A stretch of DNA of 64,000 nt from Candidatus Accumulibacter sp. ACC003 (GCF_907163085.1 NZ_CAJQTX010000004.1:140956-204955); one strand, 5' to 3'; positions 26,483 through 47,550 are shown, numbered from the stretch's first letter. The notes: generated by a model from the letters alone, not told the origin. Made by a program: numbers and translations.

Positions 26483-28390
26483 CACGGTAAATTTGTTCTC
26501 GTGCCGGGATCAAGGTGATACGTGGCCTGTAGAATTTTTGGTCATGCGCAGGTAGTCGAAGACCAATCGGATGTTGCGGTTGAGGTGGCGCATTTTTTCG
26601 GAAATGCTGGTTTTGCCGTCGGAGAAGTGGTGCAGGATTCCGACGGCAAAGCGGCGCAGGCGTGACATGTTCTCGGGTCCGTAACCAGTCCGAATACGGC
26701 TACGGTCCTCGTCGTAGTTCCAGTCGATGACGTAGTGACAGCGGTTCTCTATCGACCAATGGCCGCGATTGATGGCGAGGATTTGCTGTGGGCTGGCCTG
26801 TTCTGGAGGGCGACTGGTGATCCCGAGAGCGATTTCGTGCGTCCGCTTGCCGCTCTTCTTGTGCAGCACTTCGCGCTCGATCAAGAACACCTGGCCGACA
26901 TACGGGAAGTCGAGATAGGCGTTGAGGGCATTGCTGCACCAAATACGCCGAGTCTCGATCCGACCATGGTCAGGTGGCGAAACCGCCACGAAGTCTGCCC
27001 CCTTCCGATCCTGGAAGAGGAGCGCGATATCGGCTTGCAGTGTTGGCTGATTGCCTTTGACCGTGAAGTGATAGTGCGCCTTGCGCTCCACCAGGTAGGT
27101 CGCCAGCTTGCGCTGTGTCAGTAGCGCGTCGGCGGTGATGTCCTTGCCCTGAATATCGATCGCATCGAGCAGGGGTATGAACATCCCGATTTCATTGGTC
27201 TGCTTGAGCTCGTCCCCGCCATTTACGGGCAAGGTGCCGACTTTTTTTGGGTGTGACACACGCCGGTCTGATGCCCGACCACGCTCATGATGTGTGCTTG
27301 CTGACCGTGCTCGTCATGGGCATTGCGCATGGTCTTGCCGTCGACCGCCAGACTGGGGTCGTCTTGAGCATAGGCCTTGTTCCACTGCTGACACGCTTGA
27401 TCGAGCGCCATGGGATCGACACGGATCAGGACGTCACGAATGATGAACTCGCTGGGTACGCGGTAAACGCCCTTCTCGCGACGACAGCGGAAACGCTCGC
27501 GTGCTTTCGGTGTGAGGTCTTTGGCCCACCCGGCGATGGCTTTGTAGCCCCGCATTCCGCACAAGACCGCCGCCGTGGCGATGGCCAGAACGGCAGGAAG
27601 GGGGTGACGCCTTCCTTGCGCGCGCCGCGGGTCGGCGATGCCGGCAAAGAAATCGGGAAGCGTGCGCATCTGTTCGGCGGTGAGCATCATCCTGGGCGCT
27701 CCTGTGCGATAGCGGGGGTTGAGTATCGAGCGGGAAAGTTGGCCGCGAGCGTCCGCCTGCAAGGGGCGAACAAAGACAACTTTGGGCGACGTCGGGTGGG
27801 CGCTGTAGCCTTCTCGGGTGCGGCGAAAGCCTTGCGTCAGCCCCAGAGGCGTCCAGTTCGCGGCGCGATAGACGGTCCCCTGGAAGCGCGAGGGGTCCAC
27901 AAAGGTCTCCAGCAGTAACAGCGGCTTCCCGAAATGCGCCTGCCAATCCTCGGCGACCCGTCGCTCGCACAGCGAGAGCACCTTGGAGCCGAGATTGGGG
28001 TAATGCCAATCGGGAAGGATCAGAAAGCGACTGTTGTTGGCGACCAGGCCCAAGCGATCGTACTGATGCCGATAGTCCCAGCCGATCCAGCGGTCACGAA
28101 CGCCGCATTTCCAGGCCGCCGCAGAGAAACTCAGCAGGGCCGTCCACTTTTCGCCGTAGGTGGCCACGTACCAAAGCGTGTGCCCGATCTTCGCCAGGTC
28201 GCCCAGGTAGTGATGCTCTGCCATCAACTCCCGATAGCGAGCCTCTTCGCTCTTGCCCACCAAGCGAACACGCAATGCACCAAGAACGCTTTCCATGCGC
28301 CATTTATACGGACTTCCGGCGCAGATGTCCAGGGGGAAGAACTAACTGCTTGATTGCCCGTGCGTTGCCTGAGAGGACAAATCCACCCTG
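26483..28390 (-). mobile_element. ISAs1-family IS with DUF4338 domain, copy A (1908 bp)
   Basis: Imperfect IRs CAGGGTGGATTTGTCCTC / CACGGTAAATTTGTTCTC; 10-bp TSD CGTGGGCAGT (26473-26482, 28391-28400). Confidence 0.95.
26510..28296 (-). CDS. DUF4338-ISAs1 transposase fusion (two ORFs joined by predicted -1 frameshift, about 595 aa)
   Basis: ORF1 27223-28296 (DUF4338, DPR..QGRRH.L..VL, AVDGKT); ORF2 26510-27259 (NEI...PLLD..D, ITADALLTQ, HGRIETR, R.HW.IEN..H...D..Y.ED..R.R); A-AAA-AAG at 27247-27241. Confidence 0.85.
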
Positions 28391-28467
28391 CGTGGGCAGT
28401 TGTGGCTGCTTGACCCGGGCGACCACAGCGACCTCGCATGGCTGTGTGGCCAGCAAGGGCCAGGACC

Positions 28468-28695
28468 ATGAAAAACCAGTCCTTCGCAAAGAAACTACGC
28501 AATGCTCTCGTCGGCATCGGCTTGGCGTGGACCGAGGAACGGAATTTCCGTGTGCATGTGGCGCTCGGCCTCGCCACCCTGCTCGCCTTCGCGGTGCTTC
28601 GACCCACCGCCTTGTGGTGGGCTTTCATCGTGCTGTGCAGCGCGCTCGTGCTCGCCGCGCCTTTACTGACGTTATCGCAGATTGGTGCTGGCTAG
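28468..28695 (+). pseudogene. dgkA: Truncated diacylglycerol/undecaprenol kinase
   Basis: F...L.NA..GI..AW.EERNFRVH, then VLAA followed by unrelated sequence instead of the E..NTA.E motif; ATG overlaps the DedA-PAP2 stop. Confidence 0.8.
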
Positions 28696-28901
28696 CCGCC
28701 GGTAGTCCCTTGCGTGGCGCAGGCGTGCCGCAACGCGACTTGTCGTTCCCGGAGGGGCGCGTAGCCAGGTCTGGAATGCGCTCCTTCAAGCCTTCCGGCG
28801 CAGGCGCGCCTGTTGGTGGCCCACTCTTCAGTGCCGCTCCGAATGCGCTAGATTCGCGCGCAGCGGTCGGCAAGAATTTCAGCTGCCGGAAATCGCTGCC
28901 T

Positions 28902-30809
28902 CACGGTAAATTTGTTCTCGTGCCGGGATCAAGGTGATACGTGGCCTGTAGAATTTTTGGTCATGCGCAGGTAGTCGAAGACCAATCGGATGTTGCGGTT
29001 GAGGTGGCGCATTTTTTCGGAAATGCTGGTTTTGCCGTCGGAGAAGTGGTGCAGGATTCCGACGGCAAAGCGGCGCAGGCGTGACATGTTCTCGGGTCCG
29101 TAACCAGTCCGAATACGGCTACGGTCCTCGTCGTAGTTCCAGTCGATGACGTAGTGACAGCGGTTCTCTATCGACCAATGGCCGCGATTGATGGCGAGGA
29201 TTTGCTGTGGGCTGGCCTGTTCTGGAGGGCGACTGGTGATCCCGAGAGCGATTTCGTGCGTCCGCTTGCCGCTCTTCTTGTGCAGCACTTCGCGCTCGAT
29301 CAAGAACACCTGGCCGACATACGGGAAGTCGAGATAGGCGTTGAGGGCATTGCTGCACCAAATACGCCGAGTCTCGATCCGACCATGGTCAGGTGGCGAA
29401 ACCGCCACGAAGTCTGCCCCCTTCCGATCCTGGAAGAGGAGCGCGATATCGGCTTGCAGTGTTGGCTGATTGCCTTTGACCGTGAAGTGATAGTGCGCCT
29501 TGCGCTCCACCAGGTAGGTCGCCAGCTTGCGCTGTGTCAGTAGCGCGTCGGCGGTGATGTCCTTGCCCTGAATATCGATCGCATCGAGCAGGGGTATGAA
29601 CATCCCGATTTCATTGGTCTGCTTGAGCTCGTCCCCGCCATTTACGGGCAAGGTGCCGACTTTTTTTGGGTGTGACACACGCCGGTCTGATGCCCGACCA
29701 CGCTCATGATGTGTGCTTGCTGACCGTGCTCGTCATGGGCATTGCGCATGGTCTTGCCGTCGACCGCCAGACTGGGGTCGTCTTGAGCATAGGCCTTGTT
29801 CCACTGCTGACACGCTTGATCGAGCGCCATGGGATCGACACGGATCAGGACGTCACGAATGATGAACTCGCTGGGTACGCGGTAAACGCCCTTCTCGCGA
29901 CGACAGCGGAAACGCTCGCGTGCTTTCGGTGTGAGGTCTTTGGCCCACCCGGCGATGGCTTTGTAGCCCCGCATTCCGCACAAGACCGCCGCCGTGGCGA
30001 TGGCCAGAACGGCAGGAAGGGGGTGACGCCTTCCTTGCGCGCGCCGCGGGTCGGCGATGCCGGCAAAGAAATCGGGAAGCGTGCGCATCTGTTCGGCGGT
30101 GAGCATCATCCTGGGCGCTCCTGTGCGATAGCGGGGGTTGAGTATCGAGCGGGAAAGTTGGCCGCGAGCGTCCGCCTGCAAGGGGCGAACAAAGACAACT
30201 TTGGGCGACGTCGGGTGGGCGCTGTAGCCTTCTCGGGTGCGGCGAAAGCCTTGCGTCAGCCCCAGAGGCGTCCAGTTCGCGGCGCGATAGACGGTCCCCT
30301 GGAAGCGCGAGGGGTCCACAAAGGTCTCCAGCAGTAACAGCGGCTTCCCGAAATGCGCCTGCCAATCCTCGGCGACCCGTCGCTCGCACAGCGAGAGCAC
30401 CTTGGAGCCGAGATTGGGGTAATGCCAATCGGGAAGGATCAGAAAGCGACTGTTGTTGGCGACCAGGCCCAAGCGATCGTACTGATGCCGATAGTCCCAG
30501 CCGATCCAGCGGTCACGAACGCCGCATTTCCAGGCCGCCGCAGAGAAACTCAGCAGGGCCGTCCACTTTTCGCCGTAGGTGGCCACGTACCAAAGCGTGT
30601 GCCCGATCTTCGCCAGGTCGCCCAGGTAGTGATGCTCTGCCATCAACTCCCGATAGCGAGCCTCTTCGCTCTTGCCCACCAAGCGAACACGCAATGCACC
30701 AAGAACGCTTTCCATGCGCCATTTATACGGACTTCCGGCGCAGATGTCCAGGGGGAAGAACTAACTGCTTGATTGCCCGTGCGTTGCCTGAGAGGACAAA
30801 TCCACCCTG
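28902..30809 (-). mobile_element. ISAs1-family IS with DUF4338 domain, copy B (1908 bp)
   Basis: Same sequence and ORFs as copy A (28929-29678, 29642-30715); flanks ATCGCTGCCT / ATCGCTGCGT (9 of 10 match). Confidence 0.95.
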
Positions 30810-30984
30810 ATCGCTGCGTTGTTGAACTGGCTCATCCACACGGCTTATGTCATTATCGCGAACTCTTCTATTCGTCGATGCCGTCAGCGTGGCGCGGGCG
30901 GCGTGGCAATTTGCCGGGCCCGGCGGCAAGGCAGGTATTCCGTTCCAGTATGGATGACATCGTGACTTGGCAGGAACAGCGTGG

Positions 30985-32769
30985 ATGACTGATCACTTGC
31001 AGCGCCCCGAACTGGCGCGGGCGCTTCTGTCTTTTCGGCGAGCGTTCATCACCGTCGGCGCTTTCAGCTTATTTACCAATCTGCTGATGCTGACGCCGTC
31101 AATCTACATGTTGCAGCTCTACGATCGCGCGCTCGGCAGTCGCAATGAGACGACGCTGATGATGTTGACGCTGATCGCCGTTGGCTTGCTGGCGCTGATG
31201 TCTTTGCTCGAGTGGATCAGAGCTATGGTCCTGGTGCGTATCGGCGCGCGTCTCGATCTCGACATCAACAGCCGCGTCTTCGACGCGACTTTCGAACGTA
31301 ACCTGCGTCACGCCGGCCAGAACCCGGCGCAGGCTCTGCACGATCTGGCGTCGATGCGGCAGACGCTGACCGGCGCCGGCGTGGTTGCTCTGGCCGACGC
31401 ACCGTGGATGCCGATCTACGTGCTGGTCATCTTCATGCTGCACGCGCATCTCGGAGTTTTCGCGCTGATCGGAGTGCTGTTGCTGGTGACCCTGGCGATC
31501 ATCAACGAACGCGTTTCGGCAGCGCCGCTCGCTGAGGCCCAGAAACTCGGTATCGCTGCCAACGCGCAAGCCAACAGCCATCTGCGCAATGCCGAAGTGA
31601 TCGAAGCGATGGGCATGCTGCCGGCGATTCGTGGCCGTTGGTTCAGTTTGCATCAGAAGTTCCTGGTGCAGCAGGCGCTGGCCAGCGATCGCGCCGGCAT
31701 GCTCAACGCCATGACCCGTTTTGCACGCATCTCGCTGCAGTCGCTGGCGCTTGGCTACGGTGCCTGGTTGACCATCGCGGGCGAGATGACGGCGGGCATG
31801 ATGATTGCCGGCTCGATTCTGGTCGGGCGGGCGCTGGCGCCGGTCGAGGCGCTGATCGGTAACTGGAAGCAACTCGTTTCGGCGCGTGCCGCGTATCAGC
31901 GGCTGAGCGAACTGCTGCGCGTCTTTCCGGCACGCGTGGTCGGGATGCCCTTGCCCAGGCCGCTCGGCGACGTGCTCGTCGAGAATGCCGCCACCGCCGC
32001 ACCGGGAAGCAAGTTGCTGATCCTCAGGAACGTCAATTTCAAGCTCAAGGCCGGTGAGGTGGTAGCGATCATTGGCCCCAGCGCGTCCGGCAAGTCGACG
32101 CTGGCGCGTTTGCTGGTCGGGATCTGGCCAGCACTGGCCGGTTCGGTACGCCTCGACGGCTCGGAGATCTTCAAGTGGAACAAGGACGAGCTCGGTCCGT
32201 ATCTGGGTTATCTGCCACAGGACATCGAGTTGTTTGACGGCAGCGTCGCCGAGAATATTGCCCGTTTCGGCAAGGTCGACGCCGACCAAGTCCTCGCCGC
32301 GGCGCAGGCGGCGGGTGTGCACGAGCTGATTCTGCTGCTGCCGAATGGCTACGACACGCCTCTGGGCGACGCCGGCAGTGCGCTCTCGGGTGGCCAGAAG
32401 CAGCGCATTGCTCTGGCGCGCGCGCTCTATGGCGATCCGGCGCTGATTGTTCTCGACGAACCAAACTCCAACCTTGACGACCTCGGCGAGGCGGCGCTCG
32501 CCGAGACCATCCGGCGCCTGAAGGCGAAAAAGCGGACCGTCGTCATCGTTACCCACCGGATGACGACGCTGGCCGTCGCCGACAGCATTCTGGTGATGAA
32601 CGAGGGGACAGTGAAGGTACACTGTCCGCGCGACCAGGTGCTCGAGGCGATGCGCCCGCAGAACGCGACGAACGCCGCCGGTGCCGGACGCGCGCAGGCG
32701 GCGAACGGCTCGGCTCAGCGTATGGCAGCGACTGGTGCTCTGCCATCGGTGCCGGTTGTCGGCGCATGA
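30985..32769 (+). CDS. Type I secretion ABC ATPase/permease (PrtD/RsaD-like)
   Basis: NLLML...IYMLQ.YDR.L.SR...TL, GPSASGKSTLAR, LSGGQKQRIALARA, VLDEPNSNLD. Confidence 0.95.
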   Translation: MTDHLQRPELARALLSFRRAFITVGAFSLFTNLLMLTPSIYMLQLYDRALGSRNETTLMMLTLIAVGLLALMSLLEWIRAMVLVRIGARLDLDINSRVFDATFERNLRHAGQNPAQALHDLASMRQTLTGAGVVALADAPWMPIYVLVIFMLHAHLGVFALIGVLLLVTLAIINERVSAAPLAEAQKLGIAANAQANSHLRNAEVIEAMGMLPAIRGRWFSLHQKFLVQQALASDRAGMLNAMTRFARISLQSLALGYGAWLTIAGEMTAGMMIAGSILVGRALAPVEALIGNWKQLVSARAAYQRLSELLRVFPARVVGMPLPRPLGDVLVENAATAAPGSKLLILRNVNFKLKAGEVVAIIGPSASGKSTLARLLVGIWPALAGSVRLDGSEIFKWNKDELGPYLGYLPQDIELFDGSVAENIARFGKVDADQVLAAAQAAGVHELILLLPNGYDTPLGDAGSALSGGQKQRIALARALYGDPALIVLDEPNSNLDDLGEAALAETIRRLKAKKRTVVIVTHRMTTLAVADSILVMNEGTVKVHCPRDQVLEAMRPQNATNAAGAGRAQAANGSAQRMAATGALPSVPVVGA

Positions 32770-32785
32770 TTGGCGAGACTCGATA

Positions 32786-34174
32786 ATGGCAAACAACGTT
32801 TTTCAACGCCGGCGTACGGTCGACAGTGAGGTCACCGACGTCAACCCGATCGGCAGCGGCCAGGACGGCGAAGCGGCGGCGACGCTCGATATCAACCATG
32901 CTCGCGCCTCGCGCATCGGCTGGCTGGTGCTCGCCGTCGGTTTTGGCGGCTTCATGCTCTGGGCCGCCCTGGCGCCGCTCGACCAGGGCGTGCCGAGCAG
33001 CGGCCAAGTGGTCGTCACCGGCAATCGCAAGACCGTACAGAACCTCAGCCCGGGGATGGTCGAAGCGATCCTGGTCAAGGATGGCGACGAGGTTCGTCGC
33101 GGCGACGTGCTGGTGCGGCTCGACCCGACGACCGCGCGCTCGCAGTACGAGGTGGCGTACAGCCAATGGCTGGTTGTCAAAGCCGCCGAGGCGCGCCTGC
33201 TGGCCGACGTCCAGGGGCTGTCGGAGATCGCCTTTCCCGACGAGCTGTTGAAAGAAAAGGACGATCCACGAGCGGCCAGCGCGATGGCCGTCCAGAGCCA
33301 GTTGTTGCGGTCACGGCAAGCCGGCTTGCAGGCTGAGCTGGGCGCCTTGAAAAGCACCCTGGCGGGCTTGCAGTCGTACGCCAAGGGCCTGGATGCGGCC
33401 CGTCGCGCCAAGGAAGAACAGTCGGCGCTGCTCAAGGAAGAGCTCAAAGGGCTGCGGGAACTGGCCGCCGAGGGCTATCTGGCACGCAATCGCCTGTCCG
33501 AGCAAGAGCGCCTGCTGGCGCAACTCAGCGGTGCGATTTCCGAGGATCTCGGCAATCTCGGGCGTGCGCAGCAGGGAATCGGCGAAACCAGGATGCGCAT
33601 CATCGCGCGCCAGCAGGACTACCACAAGGAAGTCGAGAACGCGCTCGTCGAAGTGCAGAAGGAGGCCAGTAGTCTCGACAGTCGCATCAAGGGGCTGGCC
33701 TTCGAACTCGCCAATACCGACGTGCGCGCGCCGTCCGAGGGAATTATCGTCGGATTGACCGTGCACACCGTTGGCGGCGTGCTGGCGCAGGGGACGCCGC
33801 TGATGGACGTGGTGCCGAAGAACGAGCCGCTGCGCATCGACGTCCAGATCGCCACCACCTTGATCGACAAGGTCCGGCTGGGTCTGCCGGCCGAAATCAC
33901 CTTTCCGGCGTTCAACCAGAAGACGACGCCGCAGATTCCCGGCGAGTTCATCCAGGTCGCCGCCGACGCCACGGTCGATCCGCAAGGCCGCGTGCCGCCG
34001 TTCTACCGCGGCCAGGTGGTGGTCACCGCCGAGGGCATGAAGAAGCTGAAGTTGCACGAGATCAAGGCCGGCATGCCTGCCGAAGTATTCATCAGGACCG
34101 GCGAACGGACGATGCTGAACTATCTGTTCAAGCCGCTGCACGATCGCTTCAACTCGGCGTTGACCGAGGAGTGA
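32786..34174 (+). CDS. HlyD-family type I secretion membrane fusion protein
   Basis: GF..WA..APLD.GV...G.V.V, K.VQ...G.V..I.V.DGD.V, RAP..G.I, GMP.EVFI.TGERT.L.YL.KP. Confidence 0.95.
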   Translation: MANNVFQRRRTVDSEVTDVNPIGSGQDGEAAATLDINHARASRIGWLVLAVGFGGFMLWAALAPLDQGVPSSGQVVVTGNRKTVQNLSPGMVEAILVKDGDEVRRGDVLVRLDPTTARSQYEVAYSQWLVVKAAEARLLADVQGLSEIAFPDELLKEKDDPRAASAMAVQSQLLRSRQAGLQAELGALKSTLAGLQSYAKGLDAARRAKEEQSALLKEELKGLRELAAEGYLARNRLSEQERLLAQLSGAISEDLGNLGRAQQGIGETRMRIIARQQDYHKEVENALVEVQKEASSLDSRIKGLAFELANTDVRAPSEGIIVGLTVHTVGGVLAQGTPLMDVVPKNEPLRIDVQIATTLIDKVRLGLPAEITFPAFNQKTTPQIPGEFIQVAADATVDPQGRVPPFYRGQVVVTAEGMKKLKLHEIKAGMPAEVFIRTGERTMLNYLFKPLHDRFNSALTEE

Positions 34175-35505: not shown

Positions 35506-35731
35506 CCGCCAGCCAGGCGCGCGACGCTGCAGCGCGCGGCTTCAATCGGTCGGCTGGCTGACGTCCACTGGGCTTGATCCGGAGTCGCCGCTAAGATTGC
35601 CTTAAGGATGCGCCGCTATAGTGGCTCTGTGCTCGCGGGTCGAGCCAGCGTTGGCGCCGGCGACGAAAGCCGAACTTCCGGGATAACCAACGCCTTCCTT
35701 ATTCCGCAATTCTTGACGAGAGACCATTCGA

Positions 35732-36061: not shown

Positions 36062-36138
36062 GCGCGCCGCCATCGGCTTCGCGATCAATTGACGTAGCCG
36101 CCGGCGGCACGCCGGCTGCTACGATGGAGGCTTTGCAC

Positions 36139-36978: not shown

Positions 36979-39354
36979 CAGATTTCCTGATCTCGGAGGA
37001 AACCGGGTTGGCACTTCAGACAAGAGTGAAGGTCATTCTTGCCCCGGTTTCCGGATGCGGAAAATCTTGCAGGGTGAGTTCCTCGAGGAGCGCGGCGATA
37101 GCGCGATCATGAGCTGGGCTGGCCATCCGGTGAATTTTGATGGTCAGGGTGTTGGCTAGCGCGTTCGGTTCGATGTCAGCGGAAGAAACGAACAATTCGC
37201 GAATGAGCGCACGTGCGTCGTCCTCCTTCTTCAAGTGGCGGCGCAATAGCGCCACCATGGCGGTCTCGGCCCGGTAGGCGACCATTTTCACGGTATCGCA
37301 GAGCATCTTGTTCAGCGGCGGCAGTTGGGTCGGTCGCTCGGCCTCGGGCAGACTGTCGATCGTCACCTTTCGGGGGCTTGCCTTGCGCGCCGCGCAAAGT
37401 CGCTTGAGCTCCTCCTGAACGGCCTGCAGTGCTTCGACAGACTCGGCGTTTTTCTGGATTTCGCCGCCGTCGTTCAAGGCCGTCCTGGCGATTGCGGCCT
37501 GCAGTTTTCTTTCGCTCTGGCGGGTTTGCCTGACGGCCTTGTCGAGTTCCCGCCAGCGGGGGTTAACGACCTGGTGAGTGCCGGGAAGAGAGTCGTCTCC
37601 GTACTCGATAAGCCCATCAATATCATAATGTTCCATCATGTACGCGAAGTAGTTTTCCTGGCACCAACGGGCGAACATCCGCCCAGCGATGGTGGTGTTT
37701 CCGAGTTGCCGGGCGGTCGTGATCACGGCTGTTTGATGTCCCGTCTGGGTCAGCCGACGAACTTCGCTCACGGCCAGGCTGCCATCGCCTGTGCCGAGTC
37801 GGGTTTCGCGCATGGCGAGTTTCATCCCGGTGCTGCCGCCTGCCGGCAGATGGACTTCCTGTTCCTGAAACACCTCTTCGGACCAGAGGTCCTTGACGTT
37901 CTTGCGGTAGGTCAGTGCGCCGATGCGCTGTTTCCAGAGTCTGCCGAGGAGACTCTGGGTGGCCCCTTCCCGATCGAAGACCATGACAAACCGGTGCAGG
38001 GTCGGGTCGGCGTCCAGTTCGGCCGGCGTCGGCTGTCCCGGGACAATCTCCAGCAGTTGGGGGACGATGTCCTTGAGCAGGGTCTCGGCGAGTCCGTCAT
38101 TGAGCGGCTGCGAAACCACAAAGAACGGGCGACCCAGGGCATCGTTAACCCAGTAGTCGGTGGTGCCCCGCAGGCACAGGCGTTCGCGCGAGACGTAGCG
38201 CTTCGACAGCCTGGCCTGCTCGCCGTGATACACCCGAACATGACCATCGACATACAGGTAACCCGCTTCTTCTGGCTCGCTTTCCATCCAGAGCTTCGCG
38301 AGATCCCGCATCCAGGCTGCCGGGTCACCCGTCTTGGCCAGCAGATGGACCTTTTCCCGCAGGGTGCGGACTTCCGGTACCCGGTCCAGGCCGATGACTT
38401 TGCCGAGTTCTCCGGGCGAGGTTTGTCGCAGATGTTCCGGCCGCTTGATTCGCCCCAGGGCCATGAAGCCGAGGACGAGAAGGATGTGCAAGGCGCTGTA
38501 GAATCCCCGGGGCAGCTTGAGATGGCGATCCAGGCCGGTCAGTAGCCCGTTCGCGCACAAGGCCGGCAAGCCGGCCAACAGCCCCCCCATCGCCACATCG
38601 TGGCTCGCTTCGAAGCGCGTCGTCGCACCGGTCGCCAATCCCAGCGCCGTTTGGATCCGCTCGTCGGCGCGCGTGCAGGCGGTGCCCATCCCCGCGGCGG
38701 CTTCCGCATCCGCCCGGCTGCGCTCACTCTTGGTGCTCGCCGCTTCCAACTCCCCTGCCTCTTGCGGCAAGGCGGCCAACTGCGGCACGCCCTGGCGCCG
38801 GATCGCCTTGCGCAGCGTCGACTCCTGGACGCCCACCTGCCGTGCCACTTCGGCAGGACGCTTTCCCTCGCTCAACAGCCGCGCGCATTCGGCACTCTTG
38901 TCCGGCGTCATGATCCGCGGCCGGCTCGCCGCCGCCGGTCGAAAGAAAGACGATGGCCCGGCTTTGCGGCTTTGTCCCACCCAGTTCATCAGCGTGCGGT
39001 GCGGGATGCACAGCGGTGGCCTTTCCAGTTCGACCGCCTTGACGTGCCCGTTCTCCATCAGGCTGGTCAGAGCGAACCTGCGGCCAGCGTCGTCTCCTAC
39101 GGGGTGCGAGAAGTAATTGTCTCCCCCAACAAAGTAGATCGCTTGGCCATCCTTCTCCAGAATCGCCAACCCTTCTCCCACTTTCTGCGCACCATCCGGA
39201 AACCCTGGAAGCCACGATTGCCTCAACGTCTGCTCCTCCTTGCACTCCTAGCGAAGCTTGGTTTATGCCATAAGAAAATCATGGCCGTCAAAATAAAGTG
39301 CCACGTGCAATTCCGGAATTCTATCTACATTCCCGGCCGGGATCAGGAAATCTG
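36979..39354 (-). mobile_element. 2376-bp IS, copy 2 (transposase 37016-39226)
   Basis: Same 14-bp IR; 5-bp TSD ACCTT (36974-36978, 39355-39359). Confidence 0.95.
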
Positions 39355-40080
39355 ACCTTTATCTGCTGCTCGAATTCCAGAGCAGCGTCGACCGCTACAT
39401 GGCGCTGCGCATGATGGTCTATGTCGGGCTGCTCTATCAGGACCTTATCAAGCGGGGCGAGGTTCTCGCCGACGGTCGCCTGCCGCCGGTCCTGCCGATT
39501 GTTCTCTACAACGGCAGCCAGCGCTGGACGGCGTCAAACGACGTTTTTGAATTGATTCCGCCGGTTCCGGGGCTGGTCGATCAGTTCAAGCCCCGCTTGA
39601 AGTACCTGCTGATCGACGAAAACGCCTATACCGACGACGAACTGGCCTCGCTCAATAACCTGGTCGCGGCCGTCTTCCGCATCGAACACCCGCCGTCGCC
39701 GGCCGCCATCGGCGTCCTGCTCGGTCTGCTCGACGAGTGGCTGGTCGACCGGCCCGACCTGCGTCGGATGTTTGCCCTCTGGATTCGGGCCACATTGATG
39801 CGCAAGGCGGAATATCGTATCGTGTTGCCTCAGATCGACGATTTACAGGAGCTGAATGTCATGTTGGCCGAACGACTCGAACAATGGGCGCACGCCTACA
39901 AGGCCGAAGGAAAAGCCGAGGGAAAAGCCGAGGGTGAAGCGCTGGCCTTGCAGAAGCTCCTCCAGAGGCGTTTTGGTACCGTACCGTCGCCGGTTCTGGC
40001 AATGATCTCTGCGGCGTCCCTTGAACAGGTCGTAAGTATTCGGCCAACCCGTAGTGAGCCAGCGCCGTTGGCGAGGCCGG

Positions 40081-40938
40081 TTAGCGGCAGAGGATTGATC
40101 GGAAGGCTCTGTGAAGGGGATAGAGCCAGATATCCTTGATCGGGAGGATGGGCTTGCTGGTGGGGCACTTCTTGCCTCGGCCGGCGGTTTGGCCGACCTT
40201 GATCCAGTTGGCGGCCTGGTAGCAGGTGCCGCGATGGCGGGGGGTCTCGACGAAGGTTTCGAGCAGCACGGGGCGGTAACCGTAGCGCGCCAGCCAGTCC
40301 TTGGGCAGTTGCCGCTGCATGAGCGAGAGGATCTTGGAGGCCAGGCCCTTGCACTGGATCCAGGGCAGGATCAGAAAGCGGGCATTGTTCACCACCAGTT
40401 GCAGGTTCCTTTGTCGCTGCTCATCGTGCCAACCGATGAATTGCTCGCGCGCGGCGAGTTTCCAGGCGCTGGCGGCGAAGCTGAGCAAGGCGACGAGTGT
40501 CTCGCCGGCGAAGACGAAGTATCGGCTCTGACTGCCGGCCATGGGCGTGTGGCCGAGATAGTGGTAACGAGCGATGTACTCGTTCCACAGACGCGAGTTC
40601 GCCGAACCGACGACCTGTCGCACCGAGAGAGGCGGCAGTTCATGCACCGGCTGAGTGAGCAAGGGTTGTGGATCGGTGGCGTGCGTGGGCCGATACTCGG
40701 GTTGGCGAGGAGCGGTCCGTCGTGCAGCCGGCAGGGTGAGCAGGCCGTCGGCTTGCATGCGCAGCATGGCCACCCGGCAGGTCATATCCTTCAGCTCACC
40801 ATTGGGCTTGCGCCAGTCGAAGAGCTCGCACACCTGACGCGAGAGTTGTGCGCGGCTGGCGCCGGGAGGGGCCTCGATCAGGCCGCGGATCGTCTGCAGT
40901 TCGTCGGCGGTAAAGTGGCGCCCGCAATAAGGCTTCAC
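40081..40938 (-). CDS. DUF4338 (DruA-like) domain protein
   Basis: HYLG, L.F.A.AWK...R..FIGW, VNN.RFLILPW, LASK.L, LLETFV....GT.Y.AANW..VG.T.GRG; GTG start overlaps tnpC TGA. Confidence 0.85.
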   Translation of the reverse strand: MKPYCGRHFTADELQTIRGLIEAPPGASRAQLSRQVCELFDWRKPNGELKDMTCRVAMLRMQADGLLTLPAARRTAPRQPEYRPTHATDPQPLLTQPVHELPPLSVRQVVGSANSRLWNEYIARYHYLGHTPMAGSQSRYFVFAGETLVALLSFAASAWKLAAREQFIGWHDEQRQRNLQLVVNNARFLILPWIQCKGLASKILSLMQRQLPKDWLARYGYRPVLLETFVETPRHRGTCYQAANWIKVGQTAGRGKKCPTSKPILPIKDIWLYPLHRAFRSILCR

Positions 40939-42647
40939 GAGCTATCGATGGAAGGTGTCTGATTGACCGGGATGGCACGCATCTGGGCCAGACGATCGGT
41001 CGCCATCGCCCAGGGCAGAAAGGCGCTCAAGTCCGCTGGTGGCTGGTTGCCGTTGGCGGCGCAGGCTTCCAGATAAGCCGTCAGCCAGATGCGCGGGTTG
41101 ATTCCCCACAAGCGCAGCGTCAGCAGCAAGCTGAACATCGTCGCGGCGAGTGCGCCGGACCAGAGACTGCCCGACCCATAGAAGTTCTTGCGTGCGACCA
41201 CCGGCGTGCGCTGTGCGCGCTCGGCGGCATTATTGTCCATCGCCACCTCGGGGCGGTCGACAAAGACGGTCAGGCCGGACCAATGTTTGCGCATGCTTCG
41301 CAGCACCTTGCTCGCCGGCATTTTGAGCGCCGGGTTCGCCAGTTCGCTTTCCCGTTGACTGGCCATTTGCGTGATCGCCTGCCGCAAGGCGCGGTCGCGT
41401 TCGGCCCACTGTACTGGGTCGCTACGGACTTCCAGGCGCCGTCCATTCAAGTGGTAGAGCTGAGCGATCTGCTCGACCCAGGCCAGTGCCCAGTCCGCGA
41501 GCTCCGGATGGGCGTTGGCCAGTTCCAGGAAATCACGCCGCTGATGTGCCCAGCAGAAAGCCAGAATGAAGTGGTCAAGGACTCGCGCGAGCTTCTTGTA
41601 GGCCGAATAGCGATCACAGATGATGACTCCTCCGGCGCTACCGGAGAGCTCCCGGATCGGCACCGCCGCCGAGCGGCTCGGGTCGAGCACGAAGTGGATG
41701 ACCGATGGGCCGTGGAACACCCAGAAATACCAGCGATGTCCGACCTTCCCTTCGGTCTCGGCAAAAACCCGCCAGCGAGTCTCGTCCGCGTGCCACTGTT
41801 TCTCGCGACGCAGTCGGCCAAGCAGTGCTTCTTCAAGCGGCTCGAACAGCGGCGCCAAGGCACGAAGTCCGCCGGCCACCGTTCCTGCCGAAAGCCTCAG
41901 TTGGTGGTCGGACCAGTCTCGTAGAAGCCGATGCGTCGGCTGACCGTACAAGAACTTCGACAGCAGCAAGTGCACCCAAATCGACACGCCGTACTTTCCA
42001 CGCGGGATCAATCGTGCCGGCGGTGGCGCGGTCAGAATGCCGCGGGCGCCCGGGCACTGACAGGTCCGCCGGTAGCGCCGCCGGCAGATCTTCCGGCGGT
42101 AGGCTTTGACCTCGATCTCGAGAACTTCACTGTCTTCTGTGCCGGGAAAGTCGACGTAGCTCAGACCACAGTCCGGGCAATGCGGGCAGTCGATGTCGAT
42201 GACCTCGATCTGCGTCGGCAAGTGGCTTTCCGGATTCCGCCCGTGACCCGTTGCTCCCGGTTGATGACCTCGACCCCGCGACGACTTCTGGTCTGCTGCC
42301 GGGTTCTTCTCGGCTCCCGAAGAGCGTTCTGACTTGCGACCAAACAGGCGTTTTTGCAGATCGCGGATCCGGCCCTGGGCCTGCTCGAGCTCGCTACGCA
42401 AGGCCGCCTCACGCGCCGCCGCTTGCTCCGCCGCACGCGCCATTTCCACCCGATGAGCGGCCTCCGATTCCGCCAAACGGACCAGCGCTTGCCGATGTTG
42501 GCTGCGCCAGAAGTTGGCCTCCCAACGGAGCTTGATTTCCTGCTCCTTGGTCAACGTCACCAACACCTCGGCGAACGGCGCCACTTGGCGGTGACTTGCC
42601 GCCGATCCTCCGCAGATAATGTCCGTAGCCGTGCCCATGCGCCGCAT
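40935..42647 (-). CDS. tnpC: IS66 transposase TnpC
   Basis: N-terminal coiled coil (LFGRKSE), Zn ribbon CP.CG..C.C, HADET.W, .CD.YSAY, CWAH.RR.F, DNN.AERA.R; start codon uncertain. Confidence 0.9.
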   Translation of the reverse strand: MRRMGTATDIICGGSAASHRQVAPFAEVLVTLTKEQEIKLRWEANFWRSQHRQALVRLAESEAAHRVEMARAAEQAAAREAALRSELEQAQGRIRDLQKRLFGRKSERSSGAEKNPAADQKSSRGRGHQPGATGHGRNPESHLPTQIEVIDIDCPHCPDCGLSYVDFPGTEDSEVLEIEVKAYRRKICRRRYRRTCQCPGARGILTAPPPARLIPRGKYGVSIWVHLLLSKFLYGQPTHRLLRDWSDHQLRLSAGTVAGGLRALAPLFEPLEEALLGRLRREKQWHADETRWRVFAETEGKVGHRWYFWVFHGPSVIHFVLDPSRSAAVPIRELSGSAGGVIICDRYSAYKKLARVLDHFILAFCWAHQRRDFLELANAHPELADWALAWVEQIAQLYHLNGRRLEVRSDPVQWAERDRALRQAITQMASQRESELANPALKMPASKVLRSMRKHWSGLTVFVDRPEVAMDNNAAERAQRTPVVARKNFYGSGSLWSGALAATMFSLLLTLRLWGINPRIWLTAYLEACAANGNQPPADLSAFLPWAMATDRLAQMRAIPVNQTPSIDSS

Positions 42648-43021
42648 GGTGCCGGATTTCCGCTGCTGTGTCCAGTTCAGATCTCCGGGCTGCCCGCCAA
42701 TCGCTGACGGAAGCTCGCCCACCAAAAAAACCGGGGCTACGGGTTCACCGAATACTTACAACAGGTCGACCTTTGGCTCGATCAAGTATTTGACGCGGCA
42801 AGCCTCGACGACATCTTCGGGCCAAACGGCTCCTGAAACGGTGCAAAAGAAGGCGTCTCCTTGAGTAGCGCTTGATCGCAGCCGCGATCAGCCCGCTTGC
42901 TGTCGGTCGCTGCAAAAAGAGCGTGCAACGCGCTTCGCGGCTTCCGCAGCCCCACTGGAGACAAGCCAGAAGCGCAGCGGAAAGCATGGCGATAGCCTCC
43001 TTCGAGAGCCTTGTCATTCCC

Positions 43022-43104
43022 TGGATTGCTTCGCTGCGCTCGCCATGACGGCGACGCGGCCGCCAGCGCCGTCACTGCGAGGAGCCCAGCGACGCGGCAG
43101 TCCA
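43022..43104. repeat. REP-like doublet in tail-to-tail arrangement
   Basis: TGGATTGCTTCGCTGCGCTCGCCATGACG (43022-43050) and CGTCACTGCGAGGAGCCCAGCGACGCGGCAGTCCA (43070-43104). Confidence 0.75.
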
Positions 43105-43261
43105 CGCACCGGCGGCGCACAACGTTTAGATGGCCTTGTACTGCAGCTCGGTGTGCAAGCAGCACCGCCAGCTCCTGCGGACGCAACACGATTGGCGGCC
43201 TGGACTTCGCGTGCTGCCTACCGGAAATTCGTCCATTCGCCATTCACGAATAGCCATTCGC

Positions 43262-46200
43262 CACGGTAAATTTGTTCTCGTGCCGGGATCAAGGTGATAC
43301 GTGGCCTGTAGAATTTTTGGTCATGCGCAGGTAGTCGAAGACCAATCGGATGTTGCGGTTGAGGTGGCGCATTTTTTCGGAAATGCTGGTTTTGCCGTCG
43401 GAGAAGTGGTGCAGGATTCCGACGGCAAAGCGGCGCAGGCGTGACATGTTCTCGGGTCCGTAACCAGTCCGAATACGGCTACGGTCCTCGTCGTAGTTCC
43501 AGTCGATGACGTAGTGACAGCGGTTCTCTATCGACCAATGGCCGCGATTGATGGCGAGGATTTGCTGTGGGCTGGCCTGTTCTGGAGGGCGACTGGTGAT
43601 CCCGAGAGCGATTTCGTGCGTCCGCTTGCCGCTCTTCTTGTGCAGCACTTCGCGCTCGATCAAGAACACCTGGCCGACATGCGGGAAGTCGAGATAGGCG
43701 TTGAGGGCATTGCTGCACCAAATACGCCGAGTCTCGATCCGACCATGGTCAGGTGGCGAAACCGCCATGAAGTCTGCCCCCTTCCGATCCTGGAAGAGGA
43801 GCGCGATATCGGCTTGCAGTGTTGGCTGATTGCCTTTGACCGTGAAGTGATAGTGCGCCTTGCGCTCCACCAGGTAGGTCGCCAGCTTGCGCTGTGTCAG
43901 TAGCGCGTCGGCGGTGATGTCCTTGCCCTGAATATCGATCGCATCGAGCAGGGGTATGAACATCCCGATTTCATTGGTCTGCTTGAGCTCGTCCCCGCCA
44001 TTTACGGGCAAGGTGCCGACTTTTTTTGGGTGTGGCACACGCCGGTCTGATGCCCGACCACACTCATGATGTGCGTTTGCTGACCGTGCTCGTCATGGGC
44101 ATTGCGCATGGTCTTGCCGTCGACCGCCAGACTGGGGTCGTCTTGAGCATAGGCCTTGTTCCACTGCTGACACGCTTGGTCGAGTGCCGTGGGATCGACG
44201 CGGATCAGGACGTCACGAATGATGAACTCGCTGGGTACGCGGTAAACGCCCTTCTCGCGACGACAGCGGAAACGCTCGCGTGCTTTCGGTGTGAGGTCTT
44301 TGGCCCACCCGGCGATGGCTTTGTAGCCCTGCATTCCGCACAACGCCGCCGCCGTGGCGATGGCCAGCACGGCCGGCAGGGGATGGCGTCTTCCTTCAGA
44401 TTTCCTGATCTCGGAGGAAACCGGGTTGGCACTTCAGACAAGAGTGAAGGTCATTCTTGCCCCGGTTTCCGGATGCGGAAAATCTTGCAGGGTGAGTTTC
44501 TCGAGGAGCGCGGCGATAGCGCGATCATGAGCTGGGCTGGCCATCCGGTGAATTTTGATGGTCAGGGTGTTGGCTAGCGCGTTCGGTTCGATGTCAGCGG
44601 AAGAAACGAACAATTCGCGAATGAGCGCACGTGCGTCGTCCTCCTTCTTCAAGTGGCGGCGCAATAGCGCCACCATGGCGGTCTCGGCCCGGTAGGCGAC
44701 CATTTTCACGGTATCGCAGAGCATCTTGTTCAGCGGCGGCAGTTGGGTCGGTCGCTCGGCCTCGGGCAGACTGTCGATCGTCACCTTTCGGGGGCTTGCC
44801 TTGCGCGCCGCGCAAAGTCGCTTGAGCTCCTCCTGAACGGCCTGCAGTGCTTCGACAGACTCGGCGTTTTTCTGGATTTCGCCGCCGTCGTTCAAGGCCG
44901 TCCTGGCGATTGCGGCCTGCAGTTTTCTTTCGCTCTGGCGGGTTTGCCTGACGGCCTTGTCGAGTTCCCGCCAGCGGGGGTTAACGACCTGGTGAGTGCC
45001 GGGAAGAGATTCGTCTCCGTACTCGATAAGCCCATCAATATCATAATGTTCCATCATGTACGCGAAGTAGTTTTCCTGGCACCAACGGGCGAACATCCGC
45101 CCAGCGATGGTGGTGTTTCCGAGTTGCCGGGCGGTCGTGATCACGGCTGTTTGATGTCCCGTCTGGGTCAGCCGACGAACTTCGCTCACGGCCAGGCTGC
45201 CATCGCCTGTGCCGAGTCGGGTTTCGCGCATGGCGAGTTTCATCCCGGTGCTGCCGCCTGCCGGCAGATGGACTTCCTGTTCCTGAAACACCTCTTCGGA
45301 CCAGAGGTCCTTGACGTTCTTGCGGTAGGTCAGTGCGCCGATGCGCTGTTTCCAGAGTCTGCCGAGGAGACTCTGGGTGGCCCCTTCCCGATCGAAGACC
45401 ATGACAAACCGGTGCAGGGTCGGGTCGGCGTCCAGTTCGGCCGGCGTCGGCTGTCCCGGGACAATCTCCAGCAGTTGGGGGACGATGTCCTTGAGCAGGG
45501 TCTCGGCGAGTCCGTCATTGAGCGGCTGCGAAACCACAAAGAACGGGCGACCCAGGGCATCGTTAACCCAGTAGTCGGTGGTGCCCCGCAGGCACAGGCG
45601 TTCGCGCGAGACGTAGCGCTTCGACAGCCTGGCCTGCTCGCCGTGATACACCCGAACATGACCATCGACATACAGGTAACCCGCTTCTTCTGGCTCGCTT
45701 TCCATCCAGAGCTTCGCGAGATCCCGCATCCAGGCTGCCGGGTCACCCGTCTTGGCCAGCAGATGGACCTTTTCCCGCAGGGTGCGGACTTCCGGTACCC
45801 GGTCCAGGCCGATGACTTTGCCGAGTTCTCCGGGCGAGGTTTGTCGCAGATGTTCCGGCCGCTTGATTCGCCCCAGGGCCATGAAGCCGAGGACGAGAAG
45901 GATGTGCAAGGCGCTGTAGAATCCCCGGGGCAGCTTGAGATGGCGATCCAGGCCGGTCAGTAGCCCGTTCGCGCACAAGGCCGGCAAGCCGGCCAACAGC
46001 CCCCCCATCGCCACATCGTGGCTCGCTTCGAAGCGCGTCGTCGCACCGGTCGCCAATCCCAGCGCCGTTTGGATCCGCTCGTCGGCGCGCGTGCAGGCGG
46101 TGCCCATCCCCGCGGCGGCTTCCGCATCCGCCCGGCTGCGCTCACTCTTGGTGCTCGCCGCTTCCAATTCCCCTGCCTCTTGCGGCAAGGCGGCCAACTG

Positions 46201-47550
46201 CGGCACGCCCTGGCGCCGGATCGCCTTGCGCAGCGTCGACTCCTGGACGCCCACCTGCCGTGCCACTTCGGCAGGACGCTTTCCCTCGCTCAACAGCCGC
46301 GCGCATTCGGCACTCTTGTCCGGCGTCATGATCCGCGGCCGGCTCGCCGCCGCCGGTCGAAAGAAAGACGATGGCCCGGCTTTGCGGCTTTGTCCCACCC
46401 AGTTCATCAGCGTGCGGTGCGGGATGCACAGCGGTGGCCTTTCCAGTTCGACCGCCTTGACGTGCCCGTTCTCCATCAGGCTGGTCAGAGCGAACCTGCG
46501 GCCAGCGTCGTCTCCTACGGGGTGCGAGAAGTAATTGTCTCCCCCAACAAAGTAGATCGCTTGGCCATCCTTCTCCAGAATCGCCAACCCTTCTCCCACT
46601 TTCTGCGCACCATCCGGAAACCCTGGAAGCCACGATTGCCTCAACGTCTGCTCCTCCTTGCACTCCTAGCGAAGCTTGGTTTATGCCATAAGAAAATCAT
46701 GGCCGTCAAAATAAAGTGCCACGTGCAATTCCGGAATTCTACCTACATTCCCGGCCGGGATCAGGAAATCTGTCCTTGCGCGCGCCGCGGGTCGGCGATG
46801 CCGGTAAAGAAATCGGGAAGCGTGCGCATCTGTTCGGCGGTGAGCATCATCCTGGGCGCTCCTGTGCGATAGCGGGGGTTGAGTATCGAGCGGGAAAGTT
46901 GGCCGCGAGCGTCCGCCTGCAAGGGGCGAACAAAGACAACTTTGGGCGACGTCGGGTGGGCGCTGTAGCCTTCTCGGGTGCGGCGAAAGCCTTGCGTCAG
47001 CCCCAGAGGCGTCCAGTTCGCGGCGCGATAGACGGTCCCCTGGAAGCGCGAGGGGTCCACAAAGGTCTCCAGCAGTAACAGCGGCTTCCCGAAATGCGCC
47101 TGCCAATCCTCGGCGACCCGTCGCTCGCACAGCGAGAGCACCTTGGAGCCGAGATTGGGGTAATGCCAATCGGGAAGGATCAGAAAGCGACTGTTGTTGG
47201 CGACCAGGCCCAAGCGATCGTACTGATGCCGATAGTCCCAGCCGATCCAGCGGTCACGAACGCCGCATTTCCAGGCCGCCGCAGAGAAACTCAGCAGGGC
47301 CGTCCACTTTTCGCCGTAGGTGGCCACGTACCAAAGCGTGTGCCCGATCTTCGCAAGGTCGCCCAGGTAGTGATGCTCTGCCATCAACTCCCGATAGCGA
47401 GCCTCTTCGCTCTTGCCCACCAAGCGAACACGCAATGCACCAAGAACGCTTTCCATGCGCCATTTATACGGACTTCCGGCGCAGATGTCCAGGGGGAAGA
47501 ACTAACTGCTTGATTGCCCGTGCGTTGCCTGAGAGGACAAATCCACCCTG
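43262..47550 (-). mobile_element. ISAs1-DUF4338 IS, copy C, interrupted by the 2376-bp IS
   Basis: 10-bp TSD AGCCATTCGC (43252-43261, 47551-47560); 4289 bp = 1908 + 2376 + 5. Confidence 0.95.
44397..46772 (-). mobile_element. 2376-bp IS, copy 3, nested in ISAs1 copy C (transposase 44434-46644)
   Basis: Same IR; 5-bp TSD TCCTT (44392-44396, 46773-46777). Confidence 0.95.

Follow-up and report, generated by a model that had tools for sequence, protein, structure and literature searches.

Mom of bacteriophage Mu (PF25680; PDB 8bv8) modifies adenine at N6 in double-stranded DNA and depends on Gly-tRNA(Gly) to do so. Another family, PF14236 (DUF4338), owes its name to the type I Druantia protein DruA (PADLOC PDLC00002). 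Among insertion sequences (IS), the ISAs1 family (ISfinder) measures about 1.2–1.5 kb and encodes a single-ORF transposase with a DDE_Tnp_1_assoc HTH, and in IS1 and IS3 the truncated products tied to frameshifting are classic repressors. To our knowledge, DDE transposases rarely carry accessory domains of enzymatic kind, and we know of none that modifies nucleic acid. Residues H58, Y59, R111, S124, D149, R151 and Y159 are essential to Mom, as is an HTH-like insertion at residues ~175–209; Mom is an anti-restriction enzyme, and enzymes of its type bind aminoacyl-tRNA (PMC13219725). The GNAT nature of DUF4338 has already been published, and DUF4338 is also found fused to DndF (PMC10853773).

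The stretch analysed here (the window, 64,000 nucleotides of Candidatus Accumulibacter sp. ACC003) contains two recently active IS families, one of ISAs1 type and one of IS66 type, each with an integral, selected PF14236 module of GNAT fold (Table 1). A previous sequence-only reading had placed DUF4338 at the N-terminus of the ISAs1 transposase and in a separate gene coupled to the IS66 tnpC, and both placements were confirmed; the motifs that it quoted (HYLG, AAWK..R..IGW, NN.RFLILP and LETFV....GT.Y.AANW...G.T.G) were all found, in invariant columns. The 285-aa protein of the IS66-type element and the ISAs1 protein share 41% identity over 187 aa (E = 7e-39), a likeness far beyond chance, and both exceed the PF14236 gathering threshold of 27 bits.

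Table 1. Module-bearing insertion sequences and associated features in the window (TSD, target-site duplication; IR, inverted repeat).
Feature	Position	Strand	Details
ISAs1-type copy A	26483..28390	-	Intact, 1908 bp; = G000:C4:167438-169345
Copy A TSD	26473-26482 + 28391-28400		CGTGGGCAGT, 10 bp
Copy A ORF1	27223..28296	-	357 aa; PF14236 E 2.7e-25, 89.6 bits, residues 8-157
Copy A slippery heptamer A-AAA-AAG	27241..27247	-	Zero-frame CAA AAA AAG; -1 shift joins ORF1 and ORF2
Copy A ORF2	26510..27259	-	-1 frame; ISAs1 transposase DDE catalytic core
ISAs1-type copy B	28902..30809	-	100% identical to copy A over 1908 bp
Copy B ORFs	29642-30715; 28929-29678		ORF1; ORF2
Copy B A-AAA-AAG	29660-29666
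Copy B TSD			ATCGCTGCCT / ATCGCTGCGT, = ATCGCTGC[C/G]T, 10 bp
PF21804-type IS, second copy	36979-39354		TSD ACCTT
IS66-family IS	40032..42759	-	2728 bp; IRs GTAAGTATTCGG(CC/TG)AACCCGTAG, i.e. GTAAGTATTCGG..CCCGTAG
IS66-type TSD	40024-40031 + 42760-42767		AACAGGTC, 8 bp
wHTH + GNAT gene	40081..40938	-	285 aa; PF14236 E 2.9e-40, 138.7 bits
tnpC	40935..42725	-	IS66 DDE transposase, 596 aa; PF03050 E 2.3e-58; NF033517 E 2.1e-88
ISAs1-type copy C	43262-47550		Split by other IS at 44397-46772; TSD AGCCATTCGC, 10 bp
Copy C, DDE-side part	43262..44396	-	ORF2 43289-44038; ORF1 tail 44002-44370
Copy C A-AAA-AAG	44020-44026
PF21804-type IS	44397..46772	-	2376 bp; 736-aa transposase; within copy C; 5-bp TSD TCCTT
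Copy C, GNAT-side part	46773..47550	-	ORF 46761-47456; PF14236 E 8.2e-26, 91.3 bits

The terminal inverted repeats of every ISAs1-type copy are imperfect (CACGGTAAATTTGTTCTC / CAGGGTGGATTTGTCCTC). With CAGGG-type ends, a 10-bp duplication, matches to DDE_Tnp_1_assoc and DDE_Tnp_1 and, after joining of the two frames, a full-length match to the NCBIfam ISAs1 model NF033564 (positions 1–115 in ORF1 and 119–314 in ORF2), the element belongs to the ISAs1 family. It differs from classical members in an N-terminal GNAT domain of ~190 aa, which brings it to 1.9 kb. This domain (~residues 4–189 of ORF1) is devoid of a wHTH and sits ahead of the transposase's own DDE_Tnp_1_assoc HTH, which is followed by the first strands of the DDE core. 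Copy C, which differs from copy A at 21 aligned positions (~1%), was inactivated by the insertion of the PF21804-type IS. This last element is unconnected with the GNAT module.

A further difference from classical ISAs1, and a likeness to IS1 and IS3, is that the transposase is split by a conserved A-AAA-AAG −1 frameshift site. The heptamer lies in the overlap of the two ORFs, six codons before the end of ORF1 in copy A, and is conserved at the nucleotide level in three phyla, including Nitrosomonas and Acidobacteria relatives; together with the joining of the two halves, these are the features of programmed −1 frameshifting of the IS1/IS3 type. The 120 ORF1 homologues listed (down to 68% identity) are nearly all ~350–370 aa long, and a TQKK tail is common to the 12 aligned ones (12/12). 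Since A-AAA-AAG stands where the −1 frame enters the DDE core, two products are predicted for the ISAs1 type, a short GNAT-HTH protein and the full-length GNAT-HTH-DDE transposase.

The IS66-type element has the module as a gene of its own, placed 3' of tnpC and translationally coupled to it; the TGA stop of tnpC overlaps the GTG start of the module gene (GTGA). The 285-aa protein has a helical N-terminal domain (residues 11–63) and a GNAT domain (residues 104–284). The IS66 DDE TnpC (DDE_Tnp_IS66), the GTAAG-type repeats and the 8-bp duplication are shared with canonical IS66 elements (tnpA-tnpB-tnpC) and with the ISBst12 group (tnpC only), both of which differ in the coupled wHTH and GNAT gene. 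Unlike canonical IS66, the element is devoid of tnpA and tnpB, for which the 34 bp between the tnpC start and the inverted repeat leave no room, and the ORFs beyond this repeat gave no Pfam match. In relatives the GNAT gene lies ahead of tnpC or is fused with it, as in the TnpC-GNAT fusion proteins P0246 and P0249. When the genome's two IS66-type subfamilies are compared, dN/dS is as low in the module (0.17) as in tnpC (0.22), so the module is under selection.

Genome-wide, 83 PF14236 matches in five architectures were detected. The three module-bearing IS types are represented by 23 (ISAs1), 28 (IS66-type) and 16 full-length copies, of which 21, 26 and 16 are flanked by perfect duplications of the usual length (10, 8 and 9 bp, respectively), one further ISAs1 copy having a 9-bp duplication; inspection by eye of the duplications of the 67 copies revealed no target consensus. 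The module is an integral component of the IS and no passenger: it lies inside the inverted repeats with the transposase as its sole companion, and fusion, GTGA coupling and ATGA coupling all occur. The GNAT tree tracks the transposase family, with the ISAs1 clade supported at 100/100, the clade of the window's IS66-type element at 98/97 and 28 label changes as opposed to 46.6 with shuffled labels. The independent capture by two DDE families that had been proposed gains support and proved too modest a claim: the two domains fall in separate, well-supported clades, and public sequences show fusion or coupling of the module to no fewer than seven lineages of DDE transposases, with hosts from more than 12 phyla and an ANME-2 archaeon among them (in the phylum scan with alignment three candidates were scored per genome, and copies per genome are lower bounds). 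At E ≤ 1e-3 the module is matched by 9423 clusters (50% identity). A transposase was found by BLAST within 600 bp in 47 of 80 loci from GTDB species, and 8 of 10 further neighbours tested were transposases.

The AlphaFold models of both proteins are GNAT folds (pLDDT 86 and 80), and the structure search (Foldseek) that the earlier reading had proposed as a check returned 113 and 220 matches in the PDB (E ≤ 1e-3), the best 50 listed per model being all GNAT-type acyltransferases. For ISAs1 ORF1, Mom (8bv8) ranks first and second (E = 1.2e-8; next match 3e-6), while for the 285-aa model it takes rank 12 among many similar GNAT matches and is not singled out. Among 30 members, the Pfam Mom model is the sole other family matched (28 at E ≤ 0.1, lowest E = 6.4e-6), and neither Acetyltransf_* nor other GNAT families gave a match at this threshold; the scores lie under the Mom gathering threshold of 27.1 bits (best score listed 24.6 bits, E = 2.3e-5, for the member P0202; 15.2 bits for the 285-aa protein). 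Alignment with hhalign to the Mom alignment (E = 3e-4, probability 40%) pairs H58/Y59, S124, D149 and Y159 of Mom with invariant residues of the module; with single sequences the match to Mu Mom is weak (E = 0.008, probability 5%), and a phmmer search of the PDB sequences with the 285-aa protein gave no meaningful match. Mom, suggested before from a motif (SFAD...G.VYQA.NF) that is indeed present in the Mu protein, is thus the nearest characterised relative.

A closer look at the alignment shows that the residues essential to the Mom family have counterparts in the module. Among 134 cluster representatives, H126 is kept in 131, Y127 in 108, S201 in 132 and Y240 in 130, and position 231 is acidic in 118; R187 (133) and R234 (107), the equivalents of R111 and R151, were assigned by eye, as hhalign has gaps there. 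Mom and the module have F-[AV]-[DE] and G-x-x-Y-x-A-x-N-[FW] in common as motifs, and in the loop before helix α3 N-x-x-S replaces the canonical CoA pyrophosphate loop Q/R-x-x-G-x-G/A, the glycine position being N in 85 of the representatives, H in 17 and G in only 16 (N121, invariant, in Mom). One difference is the HTH-like insertion between strands β6 and β7 of Mom, which is absent from the module, where only ~15 residues separate the T-x-G-R-G turn from the last strand. The module has an N-terminal wHTH or a transposase fusion instead, and it is encoded by insertion sequences and not by a phage.

DruA is the other relative, with which the IS proteins share the Pfam family (hhalign E = 6e-7 over 151 columns), an N-terminal wHTH-like region and the R-Y...R-D-x-x-I-G-W block. 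Bona fide DruA proteins (n = 4, 383–460 aa) differ in having no H-Y, a glycine in place of the serine, no acidic residue after F-V and an insertion of ~45 aa that the IS proteins do not have; their genes belong to a druA-E operon, whereas those of the IS proteins are accompanied by a transposase alone. Neither the DruA nor the Mom profile finds the other, and the IS clade therefore bridges both. Our literature search found no mechanism for DruA, which is not mentioned by name in two Koonin-lab papers on Druantia and CoCoNuT.

The reading that we prefer, with a probability of roughly 0.45, is that the module is a putative catalytically active Mom-type acyl- or aminoacyl-transferase which is tethered to DNA, modifies nucleic acid and controls transposition. 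Since it is devoid of Mom's DNA-binding insertion, it would be brought to DNA by the wHTH or by the DNA-binding domains of the transposase. There it might covalently modify nucleic acid, most likely a DNA base at or near the ends of the element or at its target, with aminoacyl-tRNA, as in Mom, or acyl-CoA as the donor. Such a mark, or the short GNAT-HTH product bound to the ends, could then control transposition through timing, copy-number control or target immunity. Purely by analogy of mechanism, transposition would be tuned by a mark at the ends, as with Dam on IS10/IS50, or by a truncated DNA-binding protein that arises when no frameshift takes place, as with InsA/OrfA of IS1/IS3; unlike in the Dam case, the element itself would encode the putative marking enzyme, whose chemistry would be other than methylation. 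The conservation of residues might also mean a role in binding and not in catalysis.

A non-catalytic GNAT scaffold for end recognition, multimerisation or ligand sensing, with the short GNAT-HTH protein as an end-binding repressor, is rather unlikely. It would account for the missing insertion, essential in Mom, it has the established precedent of the truncated-product repressors of IS1/IS3, and DruA, closer by profile than Mom, no longer has the H, S and acidic residues and might be non-catalytic too; the counterparts of H, R and S in 131–133 of the 134 representatives, across five architectures with an overall identity of 33–41%, are nevertheless hard to explain in this way. We regard as quite unlikely an ordinary acetyl-CoA-dependent acetyltransferase of proteins or small molecules that acts on the transposase or on a host factor, for instance a nucleoid protein, given that the loop glycine is a minority residue at a position resembling N121 of Mom and that the Pfam matches of the 30 members are to Mom and not to Acetyltransf_* families, even though many of the top Foldseek matches are protein N-acetyltransferases (RimI, NatF, HP0935, KKT23), along with SpeG, and the IS66-type loop Q-C-K-G-L-A fits the canonical motif.

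The option of a defence system, raised in the sequence-only reading, found no support. Carriage of the module as defence or counter-defence cargo, be it a Druantia-like sensor or a broad Mom-like anti-restriction modifier, would fit the Pfam family common to DruA, the anti-restriction role of Mom and the DndF fusion, but is improbable: the window has no DruB-E or other defence genes, the genes that flank the IS coding for a type I secretion system, cytochrome b561 and hydrolases, and because DruB-E are absent the defence reading is unsupported. The PADLOC DruA model (407 positions) matches the IS proteins at E = 3e-3 to 2e-4 over ~50 residues or not at all, as opposed to 1e-78 to 5e-196 for true DruA in other genomes, and at E ≤ 1e-20 it has no match in the host genome. 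The module, moreover, lies within the IS, is fused in frame to transposases and co-diverges with them, and 83 copies in a single genome is the behaviour of an IS and not of cargo. An addiction module, in which a GNAT toxin of the TacT/AtaT type would acylate charged tRNA and so stabilise the IS, is highly improbable despite the GNAT fold and the binding of aminoacyl-tRNA by Mom-type enzymes, since elements of 1.9–2.8 kb have no room for a small antitoxin-like gene, a toxin present in 83 copies could hardly be tolerated and GNAT toxins are absent among the best 50 structural matches listed per model. The toxin-antitoxin and defence readings were both rejected, their partner genes being missing.

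With Mom as the nearest studied relative, many bacterial transposons may not only cut and paste nucleic acid but also mark it chemically; on the link between module and transposons our literature search found no paper. If the Mom-type module is active, it would represent a new layer of transposition control, the recently solved chemistry of Mom would gain a second branch, in cells, and there would be a concrete, testable hypothesis for DruA of Druantia. An extended form of this reading, which we hold to be speculative and unlikely in its entirety, is that IS of at least seven DDE families encode a Mom-type enzyme that would write a bulky base mark at their ends or target from charged tRNA or another acyl donor, as a self-encoded, cis-acting epigenetic switch, and that DruA would be a derived, possibly inactivated offshoot for DNA recognition. 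The module was seen in only 2 of 72,556 sequenced plasmids, and this near-absence may explain why it escaped study. The genome examined here, in which the module has 83 copies and five architectures, offers a natural test bed.

The domain shared by the two IS families of the window was identified as PF14236 (DruA, formerly DUF4338), with matches at E 2.9e-40 for the 285-aa protein of the IS66-type element and at E 2.7e-25 for ORF1 of the ISAs1-type elements. The two proteins share 41% identity across 187 residues (E 7e-39), and all the motifs that a sequence-only reading had quoted as common to both families lie in columns that are invariant in an alignment of 30 sequences covering five architectures. 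Taken together, these results confirm that observation. This GNAT domain, with or without a wHTH, is referred to here as the module.

The elements of the window were delimited by repeat finding and base-by-base comparison (see table). The three ISAs1-type elements (copies A, B and C) end in imperfect inverted repeats (CACGGTAAATTTGTTCTC / CAGGGTGGATTTGTCCTC), each is surrounded by its own 10-bp target duplication, and copy C differs from copy A at 21 aligned positions (~1%). The IS66-type element contains an IS66 tnpC (596 aa), the stop codon of which overlaps the GTG start of the 285-aa gene (GTGA). The start of tnpC is just 34 bp away from the inverted repeat, so tnpA and tnpB are absent. 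The genes around and between the elements encode a type I secretion system, cytochrome b561, a PAP2/LssY protein and hydrolases, and no druB-E-like gene was found among them.

Insertion elements delimited in the window
Feature	Position	Length	Remarks
ISAs1-type copy A	26483-28390	1908 bp	identical to copy B
ISAs1-type copy B	28902-30809	1908 bp	identical to copy A
PF21804-transposase IS, second copy	36979-39354	2376 bp	5-bp duplication ACCTT
IS66-type element	40032-42759		23-bp IRs beginning GTAAGTATTCGG; 8-bp duplication AACAGGTC
ISAs1-type copy C	43262-47550		split by another IS
PF21804-transposase IS within copy C	44397-46772	2376 bp	5-bp duplication TCCTT

Several minor features were seen in and around these elements. 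The stop codon of a gene for a 695-aa VTT/PAP2/LssY-type membrane protein (24403-26490, +) lies within the left inverted repeat of copy A, and thus the insertion replaced the last residues of the gene. Of the 21 positions at which copies A and C differ, nine are concentrated within ~60 bp adjoining the nested IS (44330-44389; 27551-27610 in copy A), a pattern resembling a short patch of gene conversion from another variant. The PF21804 IS, with 18 full-length copies in the host genome, encodes a 736-aa Transposase_29 protein with an N-terminal HTH between inverted repeats CAGATTTCCTGATC.... A YhgA/Rpn-like putative transposase remnant (PF04754 + DUF4351; 39399-40139, +) was apparently truncated 5' by the PF21804 IS and overrun 3' by the IS66-type element, in a region of IS pile-up.

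The AlphaFold2 models, which are confident (pLDDT 86.3 and 80.2), place the module among the GNAT proteins, and the 285-aa protein is predicted to comprise a three-helix N-domain (residues 11–63), a linker and a GNAT fold (104–284). The likeness to GNAT folds and to Mom of phage Mu that had been proposed from sequence was borne out by Foldseek searches of the PDB. Among 113 matches of the 285-aa model at E<=1e-3, the top 50 are all GNAT-type acyltransferases and Mom (8bv8_B) is the 12th (E 8e-5); for the ORF1 model, the two best matches are the Mom chains (E 1.2e-8 and 8.2e-7), ahead of a third match at 3e-6. The Pfam Mom family PF25680 is the only other family matched recurrently, with E<=0.1 for 28 of 30 members (lowest 6.4e-6); one strong match scores 24.6 bits, below the threshold of 27.1 bits. 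A profile-profile comparison with a 30-member Mom alignment (E 3e-4, probability 40%, 118 columns) pairs His126/Tyr127 of the module with His58/Tyr59 of Mom, Ser201 with Ser124, Glu231 with Asp149 and Tyr240 with Tyr159, while Arg187 (NN[AS]RFLI) was matched by eye to Arg111 of Mom (ELNRMW). Mutagenesis has shown that His58/Tyr59, Arg111, Ser124, Asp149 and Tyr159 are needed in Mom (PMC13219725), and the counterparts are nearly invariant among 134 cluster representatives of the module (His in 131, Arg in 133, Ser in 132, an acidic residue in 118 and Tyr in 130). The module is thus a GNAT fold with Mom-like residues.

Of 400 genomes of the class, 6 encode genuine DruA by the PADLOC model. This DruA aligns with the transposon-borne PF14236 proteins (the IS clade) at E 6e-7 by hhalign, but lacks both the His-Tyr pair and an acidic residue after the F-V position, has a glycine in place of the serine, and carries a ~45-residue insertion at the site of the HTH-like insertion of Mom. 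Because neither the DruA nor the Mom profile finds the other in profile comparison, whereas the IS clade matches both, this clade is the link between the two. Its putative active site is closer to that of Mom than to that of DruA and its proteins are barely matched by the PADLOC DruA model, so that the database name "Druantia protein DruA" is misleading for the IS genes. Directly upstream of a genuine druA in one genome (L007, 2897-4036, -) lies a gene for a 379-aa protein with several CxxC pairs.

The ISAs1 transposase is predicted to be made via a conserved -1 frameshift, by either ribosomal or transcriptional slippage. ORF1 (357 aa) encodes the GNAT, then the DDE_Tnp_1_assoc HTH and the first strands of the core, and ORF2, in the -1 frame with an overlap of 37 nt, encodes the DDE core; ORF1 matches positions 1-115 of the NCBIfam ISAs1 model and ORF2 positions 119-314. 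In each of the three copies of the window the overlap holds CAA AAA AAG, a classical slippery heptamer (A-AAA-AAG), and the same bases recur in relatives from Nitrosomonas (an isolate, 74% identity) and Acidobacteria (a MAG, 71% identity). Nearly all of the best 120 ORF1 homologues (identity down to 68%) are ~350-370 aa long, and a TQKK-plus-six-residue tail ends 12 of 12 aligned homologues. The split is a trait of the family and not a mutation. Such a site is expected to yield the GNAT-HTH protein abundantly and the full-length transposase more rarely.

PF14236 has 83 matches in the host genome (5.39 Mb, 13 contigs). BLAST with the window elements as queries found 23 full-length ISAs1-type copies, 21 with a perfect 10-bp duplication and one more with 9 bp, and 28 IS66-type copies in two subfamilies 94% identical (perfect 8-bp duplication in 26). 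A third module-bearing element of 2816 bp, present in 16 copies, all with 9-bp duplications, carries a 311-aa wHTH+GNAT gene ATGA-coupled to a downstream ISAs1-type transposase, and the module is also fused N-terminally to two Tn5/IS4-like transposases (778 and 741 aa). These elements are active IS, and in them the module is physically linked to the transposase through fusion or coupling.

The module is integral to these elements and under purifying selection: between the IS66-type subfamilies dN/dS is 0.17 for the module (0.16 within its GNAT) and that of tnpC is 0.22. When 134 GNAT domains are placed in a maximum-likelihood tree, they group by transposase family, with 28 label changes against 46.6 after shuffling (none of 200 shuffles was as low) and with support of 100/100 for the ISAs1 fusion clade and 98/97 for the window's IS66-type clade. 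The tree also requires several switches between transposase families, and the GNAT domains of the two ISAs1-type elements of the host are unrelated to each other in it.

A full scan of 1.84 billion cluster representatives found the module in 9423 clusters at E<=1e-3. In Pfam scans of long matches its fusion partners were IS66 TnpC (C-terminal) and Tn5-like, IS630 (DDE_3), ISAzo13 and DDE_Tnp_1 transposases; the one non-transposase fusion (P0365, 594 aa) joins wHTH+GNAT to an adenylate/guanylate cyclase domain, and its GNAT has a transposase-fused one as sister in the tree (100/99 support). At 80 loci in GTDB species, spanning more than a dozen phyla and including one ANME-2 archaeon, tnpC lies directly upstream in 39 and another reference transposase within 600 bp in 8; eight of 10 further neighbours tested are transposases, including IS66 on either side, a DDE_5 protein and a DUF4277+DDE_Tnp_1 protein. 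Among 72,556 plasmid records only 2 hold a relative, whose annotation reads "DUF4338 domain-containing protein" or "ISAs1 family transposase". Two MAGs, Candidatus Methanogaster (ANME-2) and Gracilibacteria (CPR), hold close relatives of the 285-aa protein at 54-57% identity, where a binning error is possible.

As to function, the reading we favor, at a probability a little under one half (about 0.45), is that the module would be an active transferase, brought to DNA, that controls transposition by modifying nucleic acid at the element or close to it. Mom has a DNA-binding HTH-like insertion that the module lacks, and the module may thus depend on its own wHTH or on the DNA-binding domains of the transposase. 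A Mom-like, aminoacyl-tRNA-dependent base modification would be a specific version of this scheme, which we consider improbable. The rival explanations take the module for a non-catalytic scaffold, for an ordinary acetyl-CoA protein acetyltransferase, for defence or anti-restriction cargo, or for a GNAT toxin.

The architectures are already visible in domain databases, and DUF4338 was stated to be a GNAT by Aravind's group for DndF fusions (PMC10853773); no literature linking DUF4338 or Mom-like GNATs to transposases was found. New here are the IS66 form in which two genes are translationally coupled, the frameshift conserved in the ISAs1 clade, the 83 copies and five architectures within one genome, the dN/dS estimate and the three-way profile result that sets the IS clade between DruA and Mom.

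Further observations concern insertion sites in the host genome (G000). A tandem array of 21-bp units (GAGCCTTGACTTCGAAGCTCA) at G000:C4:61426-66700, with similar arrays on contigs C8 and C11, is a target of both ISAs1-type elements, inserted in the same register and orientation (chance ~1 in 42) with duplications GCTTCGAAGT and GCTTCGAAG, which may point to a preference of both for the palindrome CTTCGAAG. At G000:C5:159399-163224 an ISAs1-type IS dimer lies head to tail with one common 10-bp duplication (CCTGGGCAAG) as sole spacer, and two IS66-type copies are adjacent in similar fashion at G000:C1:246277-251727. One 20-bp target (GCCAGGAAAACTACTTCGCG) holds IS66-type copies at three loci (G000:C7:78364, C7:535743 and C11:40338), being either part of another repeated element or the result of segmental duplications.
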